The translations under genes were made by a program, and so were the position numbers. Shown piece after piece: positions 2,687 through 13,498 of a stretch of DNA of 64,000 nucleotides. The stretch comes from Candidatus Moraniibacteriota bacterium. Its GTDB lineage: Bacteria > Patescibacteriota > Minisyncoccia > Moranbacterales > UBA1568. The notes beneath the pieces are model-generated. The model saw only the letters and a list, made by a program, of their open reading frames with translations, ran no database searches and was not told where the DNA came from. The first letter of the stretch is position 1; each line of letters begins with the position of its first letter. The stretch covers positions 386,979 through 450,978 of the forward strand of contig CP064975.1 of the NCBI GenBank assembly GCA_016699425.1, written 5' to 3'.

Positions 2687-3718
2687 ATGACGCTCGATCG
2701 ACTGGAGGCAATAAAGAAAGAGGCACTCTCCGCGCTCGCCCTGGTGGCGGACGAAGCGGGTCTTCAGGCTTGGGAAAATACGTACCTCGGCCGAAAAAGT
2801 GAGTTCAATACGCTCCTCCGGGGAGTGAAAGAACTCTCGCCCGAGGAACGGAAAAAAGTTGGCGCTGCGGGGAATACTATCAAGCGTGAGCTGTTTGAGG
2901 CGTTCGAAGGAACAAAGAAAAAGAATACAATGACGGTCCGGGCTTCGGATACGGAGCGGATTGATGTGACACTGCCGGGTGGGGGGGATGGTACAGGACA
3001 CTTACACCCGATCACGCGGATCGAGCACGAGATTGAGGATATCTTTGGCTCGATGGGATTTTCAGTGGCCGATGGTCCCGAAGTCGAGAGCGAGTGGTAC
3101 AACTTTGATGCGCTGAATTTTCCACCCGACCACCCTGCGCGCGATATGCAGGACGCCTTCTGGCTCGCCGATACGTGGGGGAAAAAGAAATACTTGCCGC
3201 GTACTCACACGTCTTCCGTCCAGGTTCGGTACATGGAGACGCACAAGCCACCGTTCCAGATCATCATCCCAGGTCGCATCTTCCGTAACGAAGCGACCGA
3301 TGCCTCGCACGAGCATACTTTTCATCAGTTCGAGTGTTTGGTGGTCGGGGATACTGTCTCAGTCGCAAATTTTAAGTCGGTCGCAGAGACGTTCTTCACC
3401 ACATTTTTTCAGCGAGCGACGACGGTGCGGCTTCGGCCAAGTTTCTTTCCCTTCACTGAGCCGTCATTTGAGTTCGATGTAAACTGTCTCCTCTGTAACG
3501 GTCAGGGCTGCCCGGTGTGCAAGGGGACAGGCTGGCTTGAAATCGGTGGCGCCGGCATGGTCCATCAGCATGTCTTCGAAGCCGCCGGGTATCCCAAGAA
3601 TCGCTATCAGGGGTTCGCCTGGGGCTTCGGTCTGACCCGGCTCGCGATGATGAAGTACAAGATTTCCGATATTCGTCTCTTCATGTCGGGGGACCTTCGT
3701 TTTATCCGCCAATTCTAG
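2687..3718 (+). CDS. pheS: Phenylalanyl-tRNA synthetase alpha subunit
   Basis: Class II core with FNFDALNFPPDHPARDMQDAFW and the C-terminal GFAWGFGLTRLAM. Confidence 0.95.
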   Translation: MTLDRLEAIKKEALSALALVADEAGLQAWENTYLGRKSEFNTLLRGVKELSPEERKKVGAAGNTIKRELFEAFEGTKKKNTMTVRASDTERIDVTLPGGGDGTGHLHPITRIEHEIEDIFGSMGFSVADGPEVESEWYNFDALNFPPDHPARDMQDAFWLADTWGKKKYLPRTHTSSVQVRYMETHKPPFQIIIPGRIFRNEATDASHEHTFHQFECLVVGDTVSVANFKSVAETFFTTFFQRATTVRLRPSFFPFTEPSFEFDVNCLLCNGQGCPVCKGTGWLEIGGAGMVHQHVFEAAGYPKNRYQGFAWGFGLTRLAMMKYKISDIRLFMSGDLRFIRQF

Positions 3719-3721
3719 TTT

Positions 3722-6091
3722 ATGCTCTTTTCTTATCACTGGCTCAAAGAGCTCTCGGGCACGAAGAAAACACCTCAGCGCCTGGCGGATATGCTCATGG
3801 CGCATGCGTTCGAAGTGGAAGCAGTGATGCCGTACGCCCATGGTCTTTCGGACGTCATCATCGGGAAAGTCATGACCGTGAAGCCGCACCCGAACGCTGA
3901 TCGACTCCGGGTGGCAACCGTCTCGACCGGCAAGAAGACTATTCACGAGATAGTTTGTGGTGCCCCCAATCTCGCCGCTGGTCAGAAAGTTGCCGTGGCT
4001 CTGCCGGGAGCGAAACTCCCGGGTGGAATTGAAATTAAATCAGCTGAGTTACGCGGGGTGAAATCCGACGGGATGATCTGTTCGGCGCATGAACTGGGAC
4101 TCGGGGATGACCATGCGGGTATCCTCGTCTTGCCTCCGGATGCACCACTAGGCAAGAGCTTTAGCGCGTATGCGGGGCTCGAAGATACCGTGCTGGATGT
4201 GAAGGTACTACCGGACCGCAGCTGCGATGCGCTCTCGTACCGAGGGATGGCCCGTGAGATCGCCGCTCTCGAAGGCGGAATCGCTACCTTCCTTTCGTTG
4301 ACGAAGCGACCCGCTCGTCTGCGGAAGAGCGCCAAGGTACCGAAAGTAACCCTCAGGACCGATCGCGCCAAACGCTATCTAGCAATCCGGATGGACCACG
4401 TGACACCGAGTCCGAGCCCGCTGCTCGTTTTGGCACGGCTCAGCCTTTCGGGCATTCGTCCTAGACAGGCGATTGTCGATCTCACCAATTACCTCATGCT
4501 CGAGACAGGACAGCCGGTGCACGCCTTCGACGCGGACGCAATTCCCAAGGGAGGTATCGTCGTGCGTTTAGCGAAAGCGCGCGAGCGACTCTTGCTTCTC
4601 GATGGTACGCAAATTGCTTTGTCCAAAGACGACATCGTCATCGCAGACACGAAGAAGTCGTTGGCGCTCGCCGGCGTGATGGGAGGAAAGCATTCCGCGA
4701 TTAGTGAGAAAACGCAACGGGTGGTTTTCGAGATCGCAAGTTTCGATGCTCCGAGTATCCGTCGGACGGAAAAACGTCACCGCCTGCTGACCGACGCGGC
4801 CTATCGGTTCGAACGGGGTGTTGACGTCGATCGCCCGGGCGAGACAGCTCAGCTATTGGCGACCTATGTCGAAGCGTGGGGGATCGGGCAGGGACTGACA
4901 GTCCGTGACGTCGCTTCGCGCCCCGGGAAACCAACCGTTATCCTCCTCGAACTGGCCTATCTCGAACGCCTACTCGGGACGAAACTTCCGCTCTTCCAGG
5001 CCGTCCAGTATTGCGCCTGGCTCGGTCTCACCGTGAAGAAGGTGCCGAATCAACCAGTCCTCCGAGTAGTCGTCCCGTCCCGGCGGCCGGATCTTCGCAA
5101 CCCGGAAGACCTCATCGAGGAGATTGGCCGACTTCATGGGTACCACACCATCGATCCACTCCCGCTTCTGCGACCGGCGGTGCCGCTAGTGCGAGATCCA
5201 GCCAAGACATTTGAACGCACGGTCAAGACAACACTCGCCGCGATGGGCTTCGACGAGGTCATGTCGTACTCGTTCTATGGAGAGAAGAGTCTCGCCCTTG
5301 TTGCGCTGCCGAAGGAAGAGCATCTCGCGGTTGCCAATCCGATGAATCCTGAGCAGGCATTCATGCGCGCGAGTCTCTTCCCTGGGCTCTGTCGGGCTCT
5401 CTCGGCCAATGCCAAGCAGAGCAATCGTCTCAGTCTCTTCGAGTTCGGAAGTGTTCATAAGCGAGGGGACGGTGGTCCGCAGGAGGAGAAACACGTGGCA
5501 TTGGCCGTCCTCACTCCGGCAGGAGATTTGGCCGAAACAGATTTTCTCCGTTTCAAGGCCCGGGTAGAAGCGTTCTTCCAATCGGTCCGGGTAGAAGTTG
5601 TGTGGAATGAATTGGCAACTGGAACGCCAGCTGCCTATCGATCCGGCAGCGTGGCACATCTCACGACACGGAGTGGGCATTCCCTCGGGTATGCTGGGGA
5701 GATTAACCCGACGTTGTCCAGACGTCTCGGGAGCGGCACGAGAAGTTACTTTGCGGAATTGTCTGTACCGGCCGTGATGAGCGAGACTCAGGACGCGATA
5801 GTGTACCGTGATTTCTCGCGCTTCCCCTTGGCGCATCGCGACATTTCTCTCATTGGACCCAAATCCGTATCGTTCGCTGATCTCGAAACCGTGCTCTTGG
5901 CTGCGGGCGGATCGCTTCTCGTCGAGCACGAGCTATTCGATGTCTATGTAGCAGGGGAGGAGAAGAGTTTTGCGCTACATCTCTCATTCGGTTCACCCGA
6001 GCGGACGCTTTCTGGTGATGAAATGGACAAGGTGTTTGAACACATTGTCGAGGCAGCCAAAGAACGTCTCGGGCTCCGATTGAAGATGTGA
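3722..6091 (+). CDS. pheT: Phenylalanyl-tRNA synthetase beta subunit
   Basis: N-terminal MLFSYHWLKEL…, a tRNA-binding domain, and B3/4 plus B5 domains. It is 789 aa and lies immediately downstream of pheS. Confidence 0.95.
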   Translation: MLFSYHWLKELSGTKKTPQRLADMLMAHAFEVEAVMPYAHGLSDVIIGKVMTVKPHPNADRLRVATVSTGKKTIHEIVCGAPNLAAGQKVAVALPGAKLPGGIEIKSAELRGVKSDGMICSAHELGLGDDHAGILVLPPDAPLGKSFSAYAGLEDTVLDVKVLPDRSCDALSYRGMAREIAALEGGIATFLSLTKRPARLRKSAKVPKVTLRTDRAKRYLAIRMDHVTPSPSPLLVLARLSLSGIRPRQAIVDLTNYLMLETGQPVHAFDADAIPKGGIVVRLAKARERLLLLDGTQIALSKDDIVIADTKKSLALAGVMGGKHSAISEKTQRVVFEIASFDAPSIRRTEKRHRLLTDAAYRFERGVDVDRPGETAQLLATYVEAWGIGQGLTVRDVASRPGKPTVILLELAYLERLLGTKLPLFQAVQYCAWLGLTVKKVPNQPVLRVVVPSRRPDLRNPEDLIEEIGRLHGYHTIDPLPLLRPAVPLVRDPAKTFERTVKTTLAAMGFDEVMSYSFYGEKSLALVALPKEEHLAVANPMNPEQAFMRASLFPGLCRALSANAKQSNRLSLFEFGSVHKRGDGGPQEEKHVALAVLTPAGDLAETDFLRFKARVEAFFQSVRVEVVWNELATGTPAAYRSGSVAHLTTRSGHSLGYAGEINPTLSRRLGSGTRSYFAELSVPAVMSETQDAIVYRDFSRFPLAHRDISLIGPKSVSFADLETVLLAAGGSLLVEHELFDVYVAGEEKSFALHLSFGSPERTLSGDEMDKVFEHIVEAAKERLGLRLKM

Positions 6092-6186
6092 ACCAGGCCA
6101 CATCAGATTGGGCCGTGGTTTCTATGTCAAAATAGTGACAAAGCATATTAATTATGCTTCAATATACATGGGACGGCAGCTCTTTA

Positions 6187-6954
6187 CAAAACAGATCAGA
6201 CTACCGCGCTGGCCCTCGTAAAAGAGGGTAGTGAGGAAAGTCCGGACATCGGCCCGCCCCTTTGGTTAGAAAAGGCTTGAGGGAGCTATTTTTCGCCCAA
6301 AGGGGCGGGCAGCAGGTAGCGGGTAACACCCGTCTCTCGTTTCGGCGGGAAGAGGTGCGAGCAGTGACGCCGGAGCCGAAAGGCCGAGGGTTCCTGGACT
6401 GCCATCAGGCAAACCGGGAATAATCCTGTCGCAAGGCAGGAGTGAAACGGCTAAATCCTTATCTCGATGCAAGGTCGCGTCTCGCACCTTTTTTGGAAGC
6501 TTGGATGCATAGTGTGAGTGTATGGGGAAGATTGAGGCGCTTTTGTGCCAGAAATCACCCACACTCATTTCCAAAAAAGGTGCGGGAAGAACCGCAAAGA
6601 TCTCTCTGGCGACAGAGAGGCAAGAGAAATGGTAGTCCCTCGCACCTTTTAGTCTTTACGAGAGCATATGTATTACTTGTATGTGCTGAAGAGTAAGAAG
6701 ACAGATAAGTTTTACATCGGTTATGCTAAAGATCTTCAGCAAAGAATTCTTCAACATAACAATGGAGAGTCTTTAGCCACAAAGTCCGCTATCCCTTGGG
6801 AATTGGTATACTACGAAGCGTATGCTTCTCAGGGATTAGCCAGGAAACGAGAGGCAAAGCTCAAACATCATGGAAAAGGATTCGCGGAACTCAAAAAGAG
6901 AATTCTTGAAGACTAAAAGGTGCGGGGACAGAATCCGGCTTATCGATCTGTTTT
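6187..6954 (+). ncRNA. rnpB: RNase P RNA (bacterial type A-like) with a ~450-nt insertion in the P15-P18 region
   Basis: The P1 helix pairs 5' aaaacagatc (6187-6196) with 3' gatctgtttt (6945-6954). P3 is the hairpin ccctcgtaaaagaggg. The P4 5' strand is GAGGAAAGTCCGGAC. The 3' part GGGACAGAATCCGGCTTATCG matches the universally conserved ACAGAAnCCGGCUUA. The stretch 6470-6918 falls where P15-P18 would normally occupy about 100 nt. Confidence 0.7.
6668..6916 (+). CDS. GIY-YIG nuclease-domain protein (YhbQ/UPF0213-like, 82 aa) encoded inside the rnpB insertion
   Basis: N-terminal YYLYVLKS…KFYIGYAKDLQQRILQHN is the GIY-YIG signature. The C-terminal KGFAEL resembles E. coli YhbQ. The ORF is enclosed by the inverted repeats ctcgcaccttttagtc (6634-6652) and gactaaaaggtgcggg (6911-6926). 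Confidence 0.7.
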   Translation: MYYLYVLKSKKTDKFYIGYAKDLQQRILQHNNGESLATKSAIPWELVYYEAYASQGLARKREAKLKHHGKGFAELKKRILED

Positions 6955-6996
6955 GTACAGAGCCGTCGTCTCGGGGCTTATGTCCCGCGCGTATTT

Positions 6997-8451
6997 TTGC
7001 GTGAAGAAAGCACTAACTCGATATTTGTTAACGGGGTGAAACGATCGGAAATTTATTTCAGCGCCATCCAACTCCCAGTCGACTTTCTCATGATTGTCCT
7101 CGCGGCGCTTTCGGCCTATGCGGTCCGTGACGTGCCGCAGATCCTCGCTCTTCGGCCCAAGCTCTATTCTGTTGATTTCGTCGATTTTCTCCAGGTGACG
7201 CTCATCATCGCGCCGCTGTTCCTCGTTGTGTACGCGATCGAGGGGCTGTACACGATGCGAGCGACCCGAACAATGCTTTCGGAGGCCTTCAAGGTGTTCC
7301 GTGCGACATCGCTTGTCCTGGTGCTCGTCATTGTGACTATTTTCTTGAAGCGGGAATGGTTCTCTTCGCGATTTATCATTCTCGCCGGGTGGTCGTTCAT
7401 GGTGATGTATGTCACGATTGCGCGTTACCTTATCCAGCGTATTCAGAAATACTACCTGGCAAGGAAAGGTGTTGGCGTGCACCGCATCCTCCTTGTCGGT
7501 ACCAATGGAAAAATCGAACGGCTAAAGAAACTTTTTGCGACGCGGCCGGAGCTCGGATATGTGACCGCCGGACAAGTCGAAGCCGTCTCACTCCACACGA
7601 TCAAGGACATCCGTGCCGCTCACGGCATTGATGAGATCATGGTCTGCGATCCGTCGCTAACCGATGATGAGCAGGAAAAGCTCCTCGACTATTGTCAGAT
7701 CAACAACATCACGTTGAAGTATCTCCCAACGACGCGTGAGACCTCGCGATTCACGATGAGTATCTTCAATGGCGAGCCGATTATCGAGTTTCAACACACT
7801 CCGCTTGATGGCTGGGGGAAAATCTTGAAGCGCGCGTTCGATATCGTTGGCGGTGTGTTCTTGACGATCCTGTTTTCACCTATCATGCTCGCGATCGCGA
7901 TTCTGACGAAGCTGGAGGATCCGGATGGTCCGATCATCTATACCAATGAGCGGATTGGTGAAGACGGGGAGAAGATTTCCGTGTTCAAGTTCCGCTATAT
8001 GCAGTGGAAGTGGTGCATCAACAAGAAGAATCCGAACTTTGGAGCCGCGCTCGAATTTGAAAAGCAGCTCATCGCGGAGCGGAGCGTTCGTCAGGGCCCA
8101 CTCTACAAGATCAAGGATGACCCACGCAAGACAAAAGTGGGTGCGTTCATTGAACGTTACTCACTCGATGAGCTCCCGCAGTTCTTCAATGTGTTGCGTG
8201 GGGAAATGAGTCTGGTGGGCCCCCGACCGCATCAAAAGCGCGAGGTCGAGAAATACAGCGAGTACCATCGTCGGCTGCTCACTATCAAACCGGGAATTAC
8301 TGGCATGGCGCAGGTTTCCGGTCGCTCGGATCTTGATTTCGAAGATGAGTTCCGGCTTGATGTCTTCTATATCGAAAATTGGTCCCTCTGGGTTGATATC
8401 GTGGTTTGCCTGAAGACCGCGGGAGCGCTCCTCCGCCGCCGGAAGAACTAA
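6997..8451 (+). CDS. Polyprenyl-phosphate sugar-1-phosphate transferase (WbaP/EpsB 'bacterial sugar transferase' family)
   Basis: Several N-terminal TM segments. The C-terminal catalytic domain carries …FKFRYM…LDELPQFFNVLRGEMSLVGPRP. The exact start codon is uncertain. Confidence 0.8.
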   Translation: MREESTNSIFVNGVKRSEIYFSAIQLPVDFLMIVLAALSAYAVRDVPQILALRPKLYSVDFVDFLQVTLIIAPLFLVVYAIEGLYTMRATRTMLSEAFKVFRATSLVLVLVIVTIFLKREWFSSRFIILAGWSFMVMYVTIARYLIQRIQKYYLARKGVGVHRILLVGTNGKIERLKKLFATRPELGYVTAGQVEAVSLHTIKDIRAAHGIDEIMVCDPSLTDDEQEKLLDYCQINNITLKYLPTTRETSRFTMSIFNGEPIIEFQHTPLDGWGKILKRAFDIVGGVFLTILFSPIMLAIAILTKLEDPDGPIIYTNERIGEDGEKISVFKFRYMQWKWCINKKNPNFGAALEFEKQLIAERSVRQGPLYKIKDDPRKTKVGAFIERYSLDELPQFFNVLRGEMSLVGPRPHQKREVEKYSEYHRRLLTIKPGITGMAQVSGRSDLDFEDEFRLDVFYIENWSLWVDIVVCLKTAGALLRRRKN

Positions 8452-12091: not shown

Positions 12092-13498
12092 ATGAACCAG
12101 CACAATATACTGATTGTCGGAGCAGGTCGAGCGGGACGGATTCTTGCTCGTGACATAGCTACTCACCATCACGATTGTCACATGGTTGGTTTTGTCGACG
12201 ACAACGTAAAGGTTTCTGGAGCAGTACTCGGAGATATTAGCGCGATGCCAAAACTCCTGAAGCTGTGGCGAGTCGACGAAATCATCATCGCTATTCCATC
12301 GGCTGACGGTGCACTTATCCGTCGGATTCTGCTTACAAATATCAAAAACCGGATACCAATCCGTATCGTACCGCGTGATCAAAGAATTATTAGTAAGAGC
12401 GATGTACGGTATGCAGAGGTCCGTTCACTTGATCCGGAGGATTTTCTCGGTCGGCCATTCAAGCGGCAGCATGTTGACCGGCTGACTGATTACTATCGAG
12501 GAAAGACGGTGTTCGTTACTGGCGGAGCAGGATCAATTGGCTCAGAGATCGTCCGTCAGCTTATCGATCTCCAGGCGAAGCAAGTCATTGTGTATGACAA
12601 TTCCGAATACCTCATTTTCCTTCTCGAGCAGCAGTTGAAAGAACGTGGTCAGCGCGATAAGTGCGAACTTATCGTTGGGAGTATCCTGCATGACAATAAG
12701 TTACTCGCGCTCCTTACTCGTTTCAAACCGGATATCGTTTTCCATGCGGCAGCGTACAAACATGTCCATCTCATGCAGGACAATATCGACGAAGCTGTCT
12801 ATAACAATGCCATTGGTACGCGGCGGGTCATTGATGCGGCGATGGCTGCTGCTGTCCCGCAGTTCACATTTATCTCGACGGACAAGGTCGTCAACCCGAC
12901 GAGTGTGATGGGTGCGACAAAAAAACTTTGTGAATACTATATTCAATCGCTTCGAAATACAAAGACAAAATTCAATATTGTCCGTTTCGGAAACGTCATC
13001 AATTCGAACGGGTCGGCTCTGCCACTTTTCGAGCGTCAAATGGAACTGCATGGTTATGTAACCGTGACCCACAAGAAAATGCAGCGTTTTTTCATGTCGA
13101 TCCGCGAAGCGGCCTCACTCGTCATTGAAAGTACGGCGGATGGAAAGCCGAATGCAATCCATATCTTGAATATGGGCGAGCTCATCAATATCTACGATGT
13201 GGCACTCTGTCTTATCCGTTCCAGGAATCATGTGCCTGATGAGGATGTAGAGGTTCGGATTACTGGGCTCCGGAAAGGGGAGAAGATGATCGAGGAACTC
13301 TACACCGAAACAGAGAAGGGGAACCTGCGTCAACTTAAAGGTGGTAAAAGTATCTATACGTTAAAGAATGAAGAAGAATGTCCAGTCGATATTGTCAACG
13401 TGCTGAATGAATTAGAGGCTATCGTAAAAGAAGTGGATGCCAAAGGTGATCTTCGAAAAAAAATTCGCCAGATATTTCCTTCACTCAAAAAGATCTAA
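12092..13498 (+). CDS. Polysaccharide biosynthesis protein CapD-like NDP-sugar 4,6-dehydratase/epimerase (soluble form)
   Basis: Second Rossmann domain TVFVTGGAGSIGSEIVRQL, which is typical of the CapD/WbpM/PglF family. Confidence 0.8.
   Translation: MNQHNILIVGAGRAGRILARDIATHHHDCHMVGFVDDNVKVSGAVLGDISAMPKLLKLWRVDEIIIAIPSADGALIRRILLTNIKNRIPIRIVPRDQRIISKSDVRYAEVRSLDPEDFLGRPFKRQHVDRLTDYYRGKTVFVTGGAGSIGSEIVRQLIDLQAKQVIVYDNSEYLIFLLEQQLKERGQRDKCELIVGSILHDNKLLALLTRFKPDIVFHAAAYKHVHLMQDNIDEAVYNNAIGTRRVIDAAMAAAVPQFTFISTDKVVNPTSVMGATKKLCEYYIQSLRNTKTKFNIVRFGNVINSNGSALPLFERQMELHGYVTVTHKKMQRFFMSIREAASLVIESTADGKPNAIHILNMGELINIYDVALCLIRSRNHVPDEDVEVRITGLRKGEKMIEELYTETEKGNLRQLKGGKSIYTLKNEEECPVDIVNVLNELEAIVKEVDAKGDLRKKIRQIFPSLKKI

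Follow-up and report, generated by a model that had tools for sequence, protein, structure and literature searches.

Two hairpin insertions, one enclosing a GIY-YIG nuclease gene, in the RNase P RNA gene of a Candidatus Moraniibacteriota bacterium

The RNase P RNA gene and its two insertions

We analyzed a stretch of 64,000 nucleotides (nt) from a Candidatus Moraniibacteriota bacterium (GenBank contig CP064975.1, positions 386,979 to 450,978), called the window below. It holds rnpB, the gene for the RNA of ribonuclease P (RNase P), and within this gene lie two separate hairpin insertions with a common terminal inverted repeat (CYCGCACCTTTT / AAAAGGTGCGGG). The second insertion encloses an open reading frame (ORF) for a GIY-YIG nuclease. 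See Table 1 for the coordinates of all features. An Rfam scan of the whole window at gathering level gave no matches, so a relaxed scan (positions 5800-7400, all Rfam, E ≤ 10) was needed to see rnpB. The RNase P RNA model RF00010 then matched 6188-6684 on the forward strand with an E value of 1.8e-11, as the sole significant match in that region. Its 42.5 bits fall under the gathering score of 100 bits because of the insertions. An insertion also leads the aligner to misplace the 3' end of the model, which it forces into the beginning of the ORF. The actual 3' end of rnpB lies at 6928-6956, where ACAGAATCCGGCTTATC is followed by GATCTGTTTTGT; these are the partners of the P4 5' strand (6234-6245) and P1 5' strand (6186-6197). 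No transfer RNA (tRNA) or transfer-messenger RNA genes were found in the window.

Delimited in this way, rnpB spans 6186-6956 (+) and is 771 nt long with the two insertions and 373 nt long without them, compared with a model length of 367. The conserved P4 strands GGAAAGUCCGG / ACAGAAnCCGGCUUA are present in the correct order, and in relatives, too, the model aligns these strands. P1 and P2 close the molecule and both P15 and P18 are present, as in class A. P2 shows a compensatory change, with ACT/AGT in the relative L008 and ACC/GGT in the window (L-numbers denote relative loci compared with the window). By these features, the window carries a genuine class-A rnpB of Candidatus Moraniibacteriota, within the Candidate Phyla Radiation (CPR), or Patescibacteria. 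A preliminary description of this DNA had named P1, P3, P4 and the 3' end of an RNase P RNA gene. That identification stands, as the covariance model recognizes the flanks as RNase P RNA, the core strands pair, and ORF-free relatives align over their full length.

The preliminary description had also placed a single block of ~450 nt where P15-P18 would be. We find two insertions instead, one in P16/17 and one in J2/4, the junction between P2 and P4, with the native P15 3' strand, P18 and P2 3' strand between them. Helix P19 is present at J2/4 in some RNase P RNAs, and we refer to this site as the P19 position. Insertion 2 adjoins P2 and P4 there directly, with no linker. The two inverted repeats described earlier do exist: that of insertion 1 (6480-6498/6569-6587) is 19 nt long and 95% complementary, and that of insertion 2 (6638-6661/6904-6927) is 24 nt long and 88% complementary. 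The outer part of the latter, 6638-6656 CCTCGCACCTTTTAGTCTT / 6909-6927 AAGACTAAAAGGTGCGGGG, includes one G·U pair. Insertion 1 forms a rod with a folding energy of -58.6 kcal/mol (z -6.7), and insertion 2 folds as a long rod with a closing stem of ~23 base pairs (bp; z -7.1), both z-scores being relative to shuffled sequence. Only about 40 nt of insertion 2 are non-coding.

The motif CTCGCACCTTTT (partner AAAAGGTGCGGG), shared by the two insertions, occurs five times in the window at no more than one mismatch, against 0.33 expected. No further copies of the terminal repeat were found in the window outside rnpB, where two extra 8-mer matches are unpaired and at chance level. By their shared repeat, both insertions are members of one hairpin-bounded element family. 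When the interior of insertion 1 was compared by eye with the ends of the ORF-bearing cassette, no convincing similarity was seen beyond the terminal repeat, and insertion 1 therefore cannot be called a deletion derivative. All relatives conserve a native strand of the P10/11 region, AAGAGGTGCGAG (6350-6368), that is similar to the 3' arm of either insertion. With the 5' arms it shows complementarity at 11 of 12 positions, so that it could take part in alternative pairing or point to where the repeat came from.

Table 1. Features of the rnpB locus in the window
Feature	Position	Strand	Remarks
P1 5' strand ACAAAACAGATC	6172-6197, core 6186-6197	+	pairs with 6945-6970; inverted repeat of 26 nt, 88% complementary
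P2 5' strand GACTACC	6199-6205	+	pairs with GGTAGTC, 6631-6637
Native P3 hairpin	6206-6233	+	from cmscan alignment
P4 5' strand AGGAAAGTCCGG	6234-6245	+	universally conserved core
Extra 14-bp hairpin between P5 and P7	6252-6310	+	inverted repeat 100% complementary; also in L092
Order 5' to 3': P15 5' strand, insertion 1, P15 3', P18, P2 3', insertion 2, P4 3'			from cmscan alignment and coordinates
Insertion 1, ORF-less hairpin in P16/17, 108 nt	6480-6587	+	arms TCTCGCACCTTTTTTGGAA / TTCCAAAAAAGGTGCGGGA
Native segment between the insertions, 50 nt	6588-6637	+	P15 3' 6588-6595; P18 6599-6621; J18/2; P2 3' 6631-6637; model positions ~274-320
Insertion 2, GIY-YIG hairpin cassette at J2/4 (P19 position), 290 nt	6638-6927	+	
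ORF for 82-amino-acid GIY-YIG nuclease, UPF0213/YhbQ-SLX1 type	6668-6916	+	stop codon within 3' arm
P4 3' strand ACAGAATCCGGCTTATC	6928-6944	+	model positions 336-352 in relatives
P1 3' strand GATCTGTTTTGT	6945-6970, core 6945-6956	+	inverted repeat with 6172-6197
Terminator-like hairpin, then T-run	6972-6997	+	3' of rnpB

The nuclease gene and its cassette family

The ORF of insertion 2 matches the GIY-YIG family PF01541 with 55.4 bits (cut-off 22.6 bits) and an E value of 7.9e-15. A profile built from its homologues finds the UPF0213 structures PDB 1zg2 (E 5e-13) and 1ywl, followed by SLX1 (E 2e-5 to 8e-4), which bears out the YhbQ-like assignment made in the preliminary description. Residues Y5, Y16, G18, R26, H30 and E62 of the GIY-YIG catalytic motif are invariant in 35 homologues. 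The protein consists of the catalytic domain only and has no DNA-binding domain. Differences in the ORF by codon position are 5/6/34, and dN/dS, the ratio of nonsynonymous to synonymous change, is 0.05 when the window is compared with L007 and 0.2 when it is compared with L008, with synonymous sites near saturation. By this pattern of change, the nuclease gene is under strong purifying selection. From P18 to the ORF no promoter-like site was found, and rnpB is followed by a terminator-like hairpin, so that co-transcription with rnpB is the simplest reading.

We compared the locus with rnpB genes that lack the ORF. Searching metagenome contigs by pattern for a P2 3' strand separated from the P4 3' strand by only a short spacer yielded six such genes, five of which were scanned with RF00010; L090 was left out as nearly identical to L087. 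All five (L087, L088, L089, L091 and L092) align to the model from end to end at 85.8-139.3 bits and have the same flanks. Their J2/4 is only 18-28 nt long and contains a short hairpin in most, such as GTCCTGC-TTCG-GCGGGAT in L087. L092 is without either insertion (J2/4 of 26 nt, P16/17 of 37 nt), and its rnpB core is 78.2% identical to that of the window. L007, at 78.6%, and L008 both carry the two insertions as the window does, and core identity across these three species is 73-79%. Genes with and without the insertions thus exist in homologous genomes, a comparison that the preliminary description had proposed. A second pair shows the same contrast. In L001, P3 is native and the ORF cassette is at J2/4, whereas in its close relative L004 the cassette replaces P3, and J2/4 holds an ORF-less hairpin with the same repeat. 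Together, the two comparisons indicate presence/absence polymorphism, and the cassette replaces the native hairpin and is not added to it.

The short P19-like hairpins of L087 (~13270-13290), L091 and L088 resemble the outer ends of the cassette repeat, with GTCCTGC-TTCG-GCGGGAT set against ATCCCGCACC...GGTGCGGGAT. Loss of the cassette interior may have left them as remnants. The extra hairpin at 6252-6310, shared by L092 and the window, may be an older, diverged insertion. At the same P5/P7 site (~2065-2165), L007 has a different hairpin of ~100 nt with a CCGCACCAAT repeat, bounded by CACCGCACCAATCGA / TCGATTGGTGTGGTG. This repeat is a variant that occurs in other cassettes, and the site may be a fourth or fifth rnpB hotspot.

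A scan of species-representative genomes gave at least 594 relatives. We fetched the best 80 loci, and the counts of genomic context below refer to these 80. Nearly all short-ORF copies are enclosed by an inverted repeat of 14-30 nt with the outer pattern CCCnnCACC...GGTGnnGGG. The repeat occurs in variants such as CCCCGCACC, CCCCTCACC, CCCAGCACC and CCCCCACACC, each with a matching partner arm, and relatives with long, fused ORFs score only 5-8 in the inverted-repeat test. The host is rnpB at 13 loci, ten of which have the cassette in place of P3, two at J2/4 and one in P12. RF00010 confirms all 13 on the strand of the ORF, with E values from 1e-14 to 1e-68 and scores up to 216 bits. Where the cassette replaces P3, the ORF is preceded by the P1 or P2 5' strands, whose partners come after the P4 3' strand.

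Ribosomal RNA (rRNA) genes are also hosts. The cassette is found in 16S rRNA genes or the 16S-tRNA spacer at 11 loci. In L003/L009, covariance-model alignment places a 277-nt insertion in 16S helix 17; the other 16S loci were assigned by conserved motifs. The L003 cassette in helix 17 has the same terminal repeat as that of the window, and its ORF is 68% identical. Five or six loci lie in 23S rRNA genes, recognized by conserved motifs or, for L042, by the covariance model. Seven cassettes lie directly upstream of a tRNA gene, ending 0-120 nt before it. At every locus with a recognized host RNA, the ORF reads in the sense direction of that RNA. Rfam scans of thirty loci of unknown context (20, then 10) revealed no RNA hosts besides the 23S rRNA in L042. 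Hairpins with the same repeat and no ORF are represented by insertion 1 of the window, the J2/4 copy of L004 and an intergenic copy in L001. By these occurrences, the cassette family is widespread in Patescibacteria.

Several individual loci add to this picture. The intergenic copy in L001 (2293-2413) is an ORF-less hairpin of ~120 nt that immediately precedes the rnpB promoter region and carries the same terminal repeat (TCCCGCACCTTATTTGCGC / GCGCAAATAAGGTGCGGGA). In L018, a partial copy of the cassette 3' arm (TAGCACGAAGGGTGCGGGA, ~3225-3250) comes right after the rnpB 3' end. A recurrent site is the spacer between rpmI (L35) and rplT (L20) in the infC-rpmI-rplT-pheS operon, where the cassette lies on the sense strand (L084 2470-2775; also L062 and L086). 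The flanks are conserved (GCCGAAYTT on one side, TNAATTCG on the other), and the site has no Rfam match. At the tRNA loci L050, L061, L076 and L082 (~2750-2780), the last 4-5 nt of the cassette 3' arm (GGGGC or GGAGGC) are the first bases of the tRNA. A copy of the tRNA 5' end, 8-10 nt long, stands just upstream of the 5' arm at these loci (GGGGCCCTTA, then the cassette, then ...GGGGCCCTTAGCTCAG), and may be either a target-site duplication or a restored tRNA end. For cassettes in such leaders, cleavage by RNase P would release the cassette as the 5' leader. The 23S gene of L042 (4591-4859) has a GIY-YIG cassette near its 5' end and also holds a group I intron (RF00028, 80.5 bits), so both kinds of insertion occur in one gene. 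Pairs of GIY-YIG homologues 0.2-1.5 kilobases (kb) apart are seen in L079 (1306-1566 and 2893-3138) and L064 (2501-2764 and 2937-3149), and L079 has an extra repeat arm just upstream of its first copy. L007-L010, L045 and L048 are titled 'uncultured Bdellovibrionales' or 'Gammaproteobacteria' despite their Patescibacteria-type rnpB or 16S and cassettes, and are probably mislabelled bins.

The genes around rnpB in the window are ordinary. Upstream is pheT (phenylalanyl-tRNA synthetase beta chain, 3722-6091) and downstream a Bac_transf sugar transferase (6997-8451). A sugar transferase also lies downstream of rnpB in L001 and L004, where the upstream neighbor differs.

Probable RNA-level action, mobility and the alternatives

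The hairpin very likely acts at the RNA level. Across 63 distinct stems, the non-Watson-Crick positions comprise 54 G·U on the sense strand against 13 A·C (binomial p 4e-7). Recognition of DNA only would give no such asymmetry, which thus points to selection on the RNA helix of the sense strand. This test replaced a formal covariation count, which we dropped because the arms had been chosen for their complementarity and the count would be circular. The position of the insertions is also that of an intervening sequence (IVS), with stems of 19-24 bp at two places in a stable RNA gene, P16/17 and the P19 position, and their sporadic occurrence (absent from L092; present in the window, L007 and L008) is that of an IVS as well.

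That a cassette of this family has been inserted in a functional rnpB is highly probable. Beyond this, we somewhat favor the explanation that it is a mobile, co-transcribed cassette whose protruding helix is tolerated in rnpB and is probably clipped off like an rRNA IVS. The ORF, with no promoter of its own, would be transcribed from the rnpB promoter as part of the precursor. The terminal repeat would form an RNA helix of ~20 bp, and the core of P1, P2 and P4 would close around the insertion, from which we infer that the ribozyme still works. A double-strand-specific RNase of the RNase III type would probably cut the closing helix, as happens in rRNA IVSs and in P12 of Thermodesulfatator indicus. 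The result would be a ribozyme in two or three pieces that P1, P4 and the stem stubs keep together. A cut in insertion 2 would leave a 3' piece of ~40 nt, held by its stem stub, P4 and the long P1, and would free the loop as a nuclease messenger RNA (mRNA) with paired ends. Our analysis thus leans toward excision of the insertion over its retention. At the DNA level, we assume that the nuclease promotes the spread of the cassette, perhaps, as a conjecture, through structure-specific cuts by this SLX1-like enzyme where the DNA of strongly transcribed RNA genes forms hairpins.

Mobility is indicated by protein neighbors that sit at different sites. The nearest such pairs are L004 (P3) and L001 (P19 position) at 77% identity, L012 (P12) and L013 (P3) at 71%, L003 (16S) and L007 (P19 position) at 70%, and L016 (16S) and L028 (P3) at 62%. 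Close protein relatives at different host sites, together with close rnpB genes with and without the elements, argue that the cassette comes, goes and changes sites. Homing faithful to one site was considered and rejected, given relatives at P3, P12, the P19 position, 16S, 23S and tRNA leaders and a protein without a DNA-recognition domain; the same view is taken of the CPR rRNA insertions in PMC11270868. The cassette has terminal inverted repeats like those of a transposon or a miniature inverted-repeat transposable element. No recognizable transposase or DNA-binding domain was found in it, and no direct repeats flank the rnpB copies; the 8-10-nt repeats seen at tRNA 5' ends only are ambiguous. 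GIY-YIG proteins are not known to act as transposases in bacteria.

The lack of a target-site duplication and of a recognizable transposase or DNA-binding domain could also be cited for a cassette that is not mobile at all, in which the hairpins would be lineage-specific native helices and the nuclease a domesticated host gene nested there. Vertical inheritance within the clade of the window, L007 and L008 fits this too. We nevertheless regard it as very unlikely, since the insertions come and go among equally close relatives, copies in P3, the P19 position, 16S rRNA and intergenic DNA share the same terminal repeat and have proteins of 66-77% identity, and ORF-less copies exist outside RNA genes (L001). 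An even less probable account is that the insertions have inactivated this copy of rnpB, with RNase P supplied from elsewhere in the genome. The Rfam score under gathering and the coverage of the window, 64 kb of a genome of ~1.2 megabases (Mb), would allow for it. Against it, the P1, P2, P4, P15 and P18 strands are intact and still pair, and three species at 73-79% core identity keep the interrupted layout, with the compensatory change in P2. Moreover, 13 species representatives from several Patescibacteria lineages carry the ORF in an rnpB whose score is otherwise good (up to 216 bits).

The preliminary description had left three fates for the insertion: an intron, an excised IVS or a retained expansion. 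The intron has fallen away and the other two remain candidates. GIY-YIG genes are classic cargo of group I introns, and such introns are abundant in structured RNA genes of Patescibacteria (PMC13011429; also the 23S of L042), so a self-splicing group I or II intron with a homing endonuclease, and ligated rnpB exons, was a natural proposal. The search with intron covariance models proposed earlier gave no match to RF00028 or to group II models in 5800-7400 at E ≤ 10. Of the 290 nt in the insertion, the ~40 nt outside the ORF are far too short for a ribozyme core, and the element ends form a plain, continuous helix. The GIY-YIG insertions in CPR rRNA are likewise unlike introns (PMC11270868). 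A group I or II intron is effectively refuted and is the least probable of all explanations considered.

Retention of both hairpins in a mature RNA of ~770 nt is a more serious competitor, though we consider it rather unlikely. The RNA would then be ribozyme and mRNA in one, or the ORF would be translated only from the precursor or a minor fraction. The sites used by the family (the P3 tip, P12 tip, P16/17 and P19 position) are peripheral helices that tolerate variation in length, and large helix extensions have been reported for CPR RNase P RNAs (PMC8172020). The closing stem meets P2 and P4 without a linker, as a native P19 does, and the insertion is old enough for synonymous sites of the ORF to be nearly saturated while the core stays conserved. 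What speaks for excision is that the same cassette and stem occur in 16S helix 17, where a translated ORF kept inside the ribosomal subunit is hard to picture. The stems of 19-30 bp are also long enough to be RNase III substrates, and excision of an expansion from an RNase P RNA has a precedent (PMC9945441).

Several considerations weigh against a mobile cassette clipped from a working rnpB. Excision, fragmentation and translation are predictions. The G·U bias may be inflated, as some of the stems are related and part of the 3' arm is coding. A three-piece ribozyme, with both hairpins cut, is to our knowledge without natural precedent. In the part of the ~1.2-Mb genome beyond the window, a second, uninterrupted rnpB or a protein-only RNase P is possible. 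The 82-residue GIY-YIG domain has no known route for finding a target, and the rnpB sites show no target-site duplication. With these points in mind, we put forward a wider proposal only tentatively. The cassette may be an undescribed minimal mobile element, in which a gene for an SLX1/YhbQ-type nuclease with only the catalytic domain is carried in a conserved RNA hairpin and which is specialized for highly transcribed genes of structured RNAs, the RNase P ribozyme among them. Cleavage of the hairpin by a host double-strand RNase would free the mRNA, and many Patescibacteria would have an RNase P RNA naturally split into two or three pieces.

Relation to known insertions and nucleases

RNase P RNA is a universal, essential ribozyme, and a protein gene nested in it would be new for bacteria as far as the searched literature shows. 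No protein-coding insertion in a bacterial rnpB was found in that literature, in agreement with the preliminary description, which knew of no reported ORF-bearing insertion there; the same cassette family has been reported in CPR rRNA genes (PMC11270868). Neither the conserved hairpin repeat of the cassette nor its rnpB, tRNA-leader and ORF-less forms were found in the searched literature. Such nesting is seen repeatedly, at three or four helices of rnpB and in many lineages of Patescibacteria. The defined terminal repeat makes one family of the insertions in rRNA and rnpB, the ORFs in tRNA leaders and the hairpins without an ORF. This raises the questions of whether CPR RNase P RNA is put together from fragments, whether a protein is made from a ribozyme transcript, and what the substrate of a GIY-YIG nuclease without a DNA-binding domain is. 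CPR RNase P RNAs are known to be diverged, with helix extensions, and to fall below Rfam thresholds, so that lowered thresholds are needed (PMC8172020). The insertions, which lower the Rfam score here to 42 against 100 bits, are part of why standard annotation misses rnpB in CPR genomes.

The CPR rRNA insertions are reportedly absent from transcripts. Non-intron insertions that encode GIY-YIG proteins in CPR 16S and 23S rRNA genes are the closest known system (Tsurumaki et al. 2024, PMC11270868, citing an earlier study for their first identification). They share with the cassette described here the protein family, the lack of intron-like features, and scattered, poorly conserved sites at the tips of stem-loops, and differ in having rRNA as the host where the window has the RNase P ribozyme. 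The text of PMC11270868 does not mention inverted repeats or palindromes, and the conserved hairpin repeat, the ORF-less copies and the tRNA-leader and rnpB sites seen here are not described in it.

The IVSs of 23S rRNA, which are processed by RNase III and some of which contain small ORFs, are similar in being an extra segment at a helix tip of a stable RNA gene, with an inverted repeat that forms a long stem and a sporadic distribution. Their host RNA stays functional, and rnpB in the window likewise looks functional by its sequence. In contrast, their cargo is a protein of the S23p type where ours is a GIY-YIG nuclease, the host here is rnpB, and excision here is a prediction. Within RNase P RNA itself, a P12 expansion of ~70 nt in T. 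indicus is excised in vivo and leaves a fragmented but functional RNA (PMC9945441). That segment is non-coding and known from one lineage, whereas the insertions here are of 108 and 290 nt, one of them protein-coding, and are part of a dispersed family. The sites of this family are P16/17 and the P19 position in the window, and in other species also P3 and P12.

Group I introns with GIY-YIG genes, such as the td intron of phage T4 with I-TevI, also nest a nuclease gene in an essential gene whose function is kept. Unlike them, the cassette has no ribozyme core, its protein has only the catalytic domain, and it has no single target site. Finally, the structure-specific UPF0213/YhbQ and SLX1 nucleases share their sequence family and single catalytic domain with the protein found here. 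YhbQ-type genes have been treated as ordinary, free-standing genes, whereas this one is enclosed in a conserved hairpin and nested in genes for stable RNAs.

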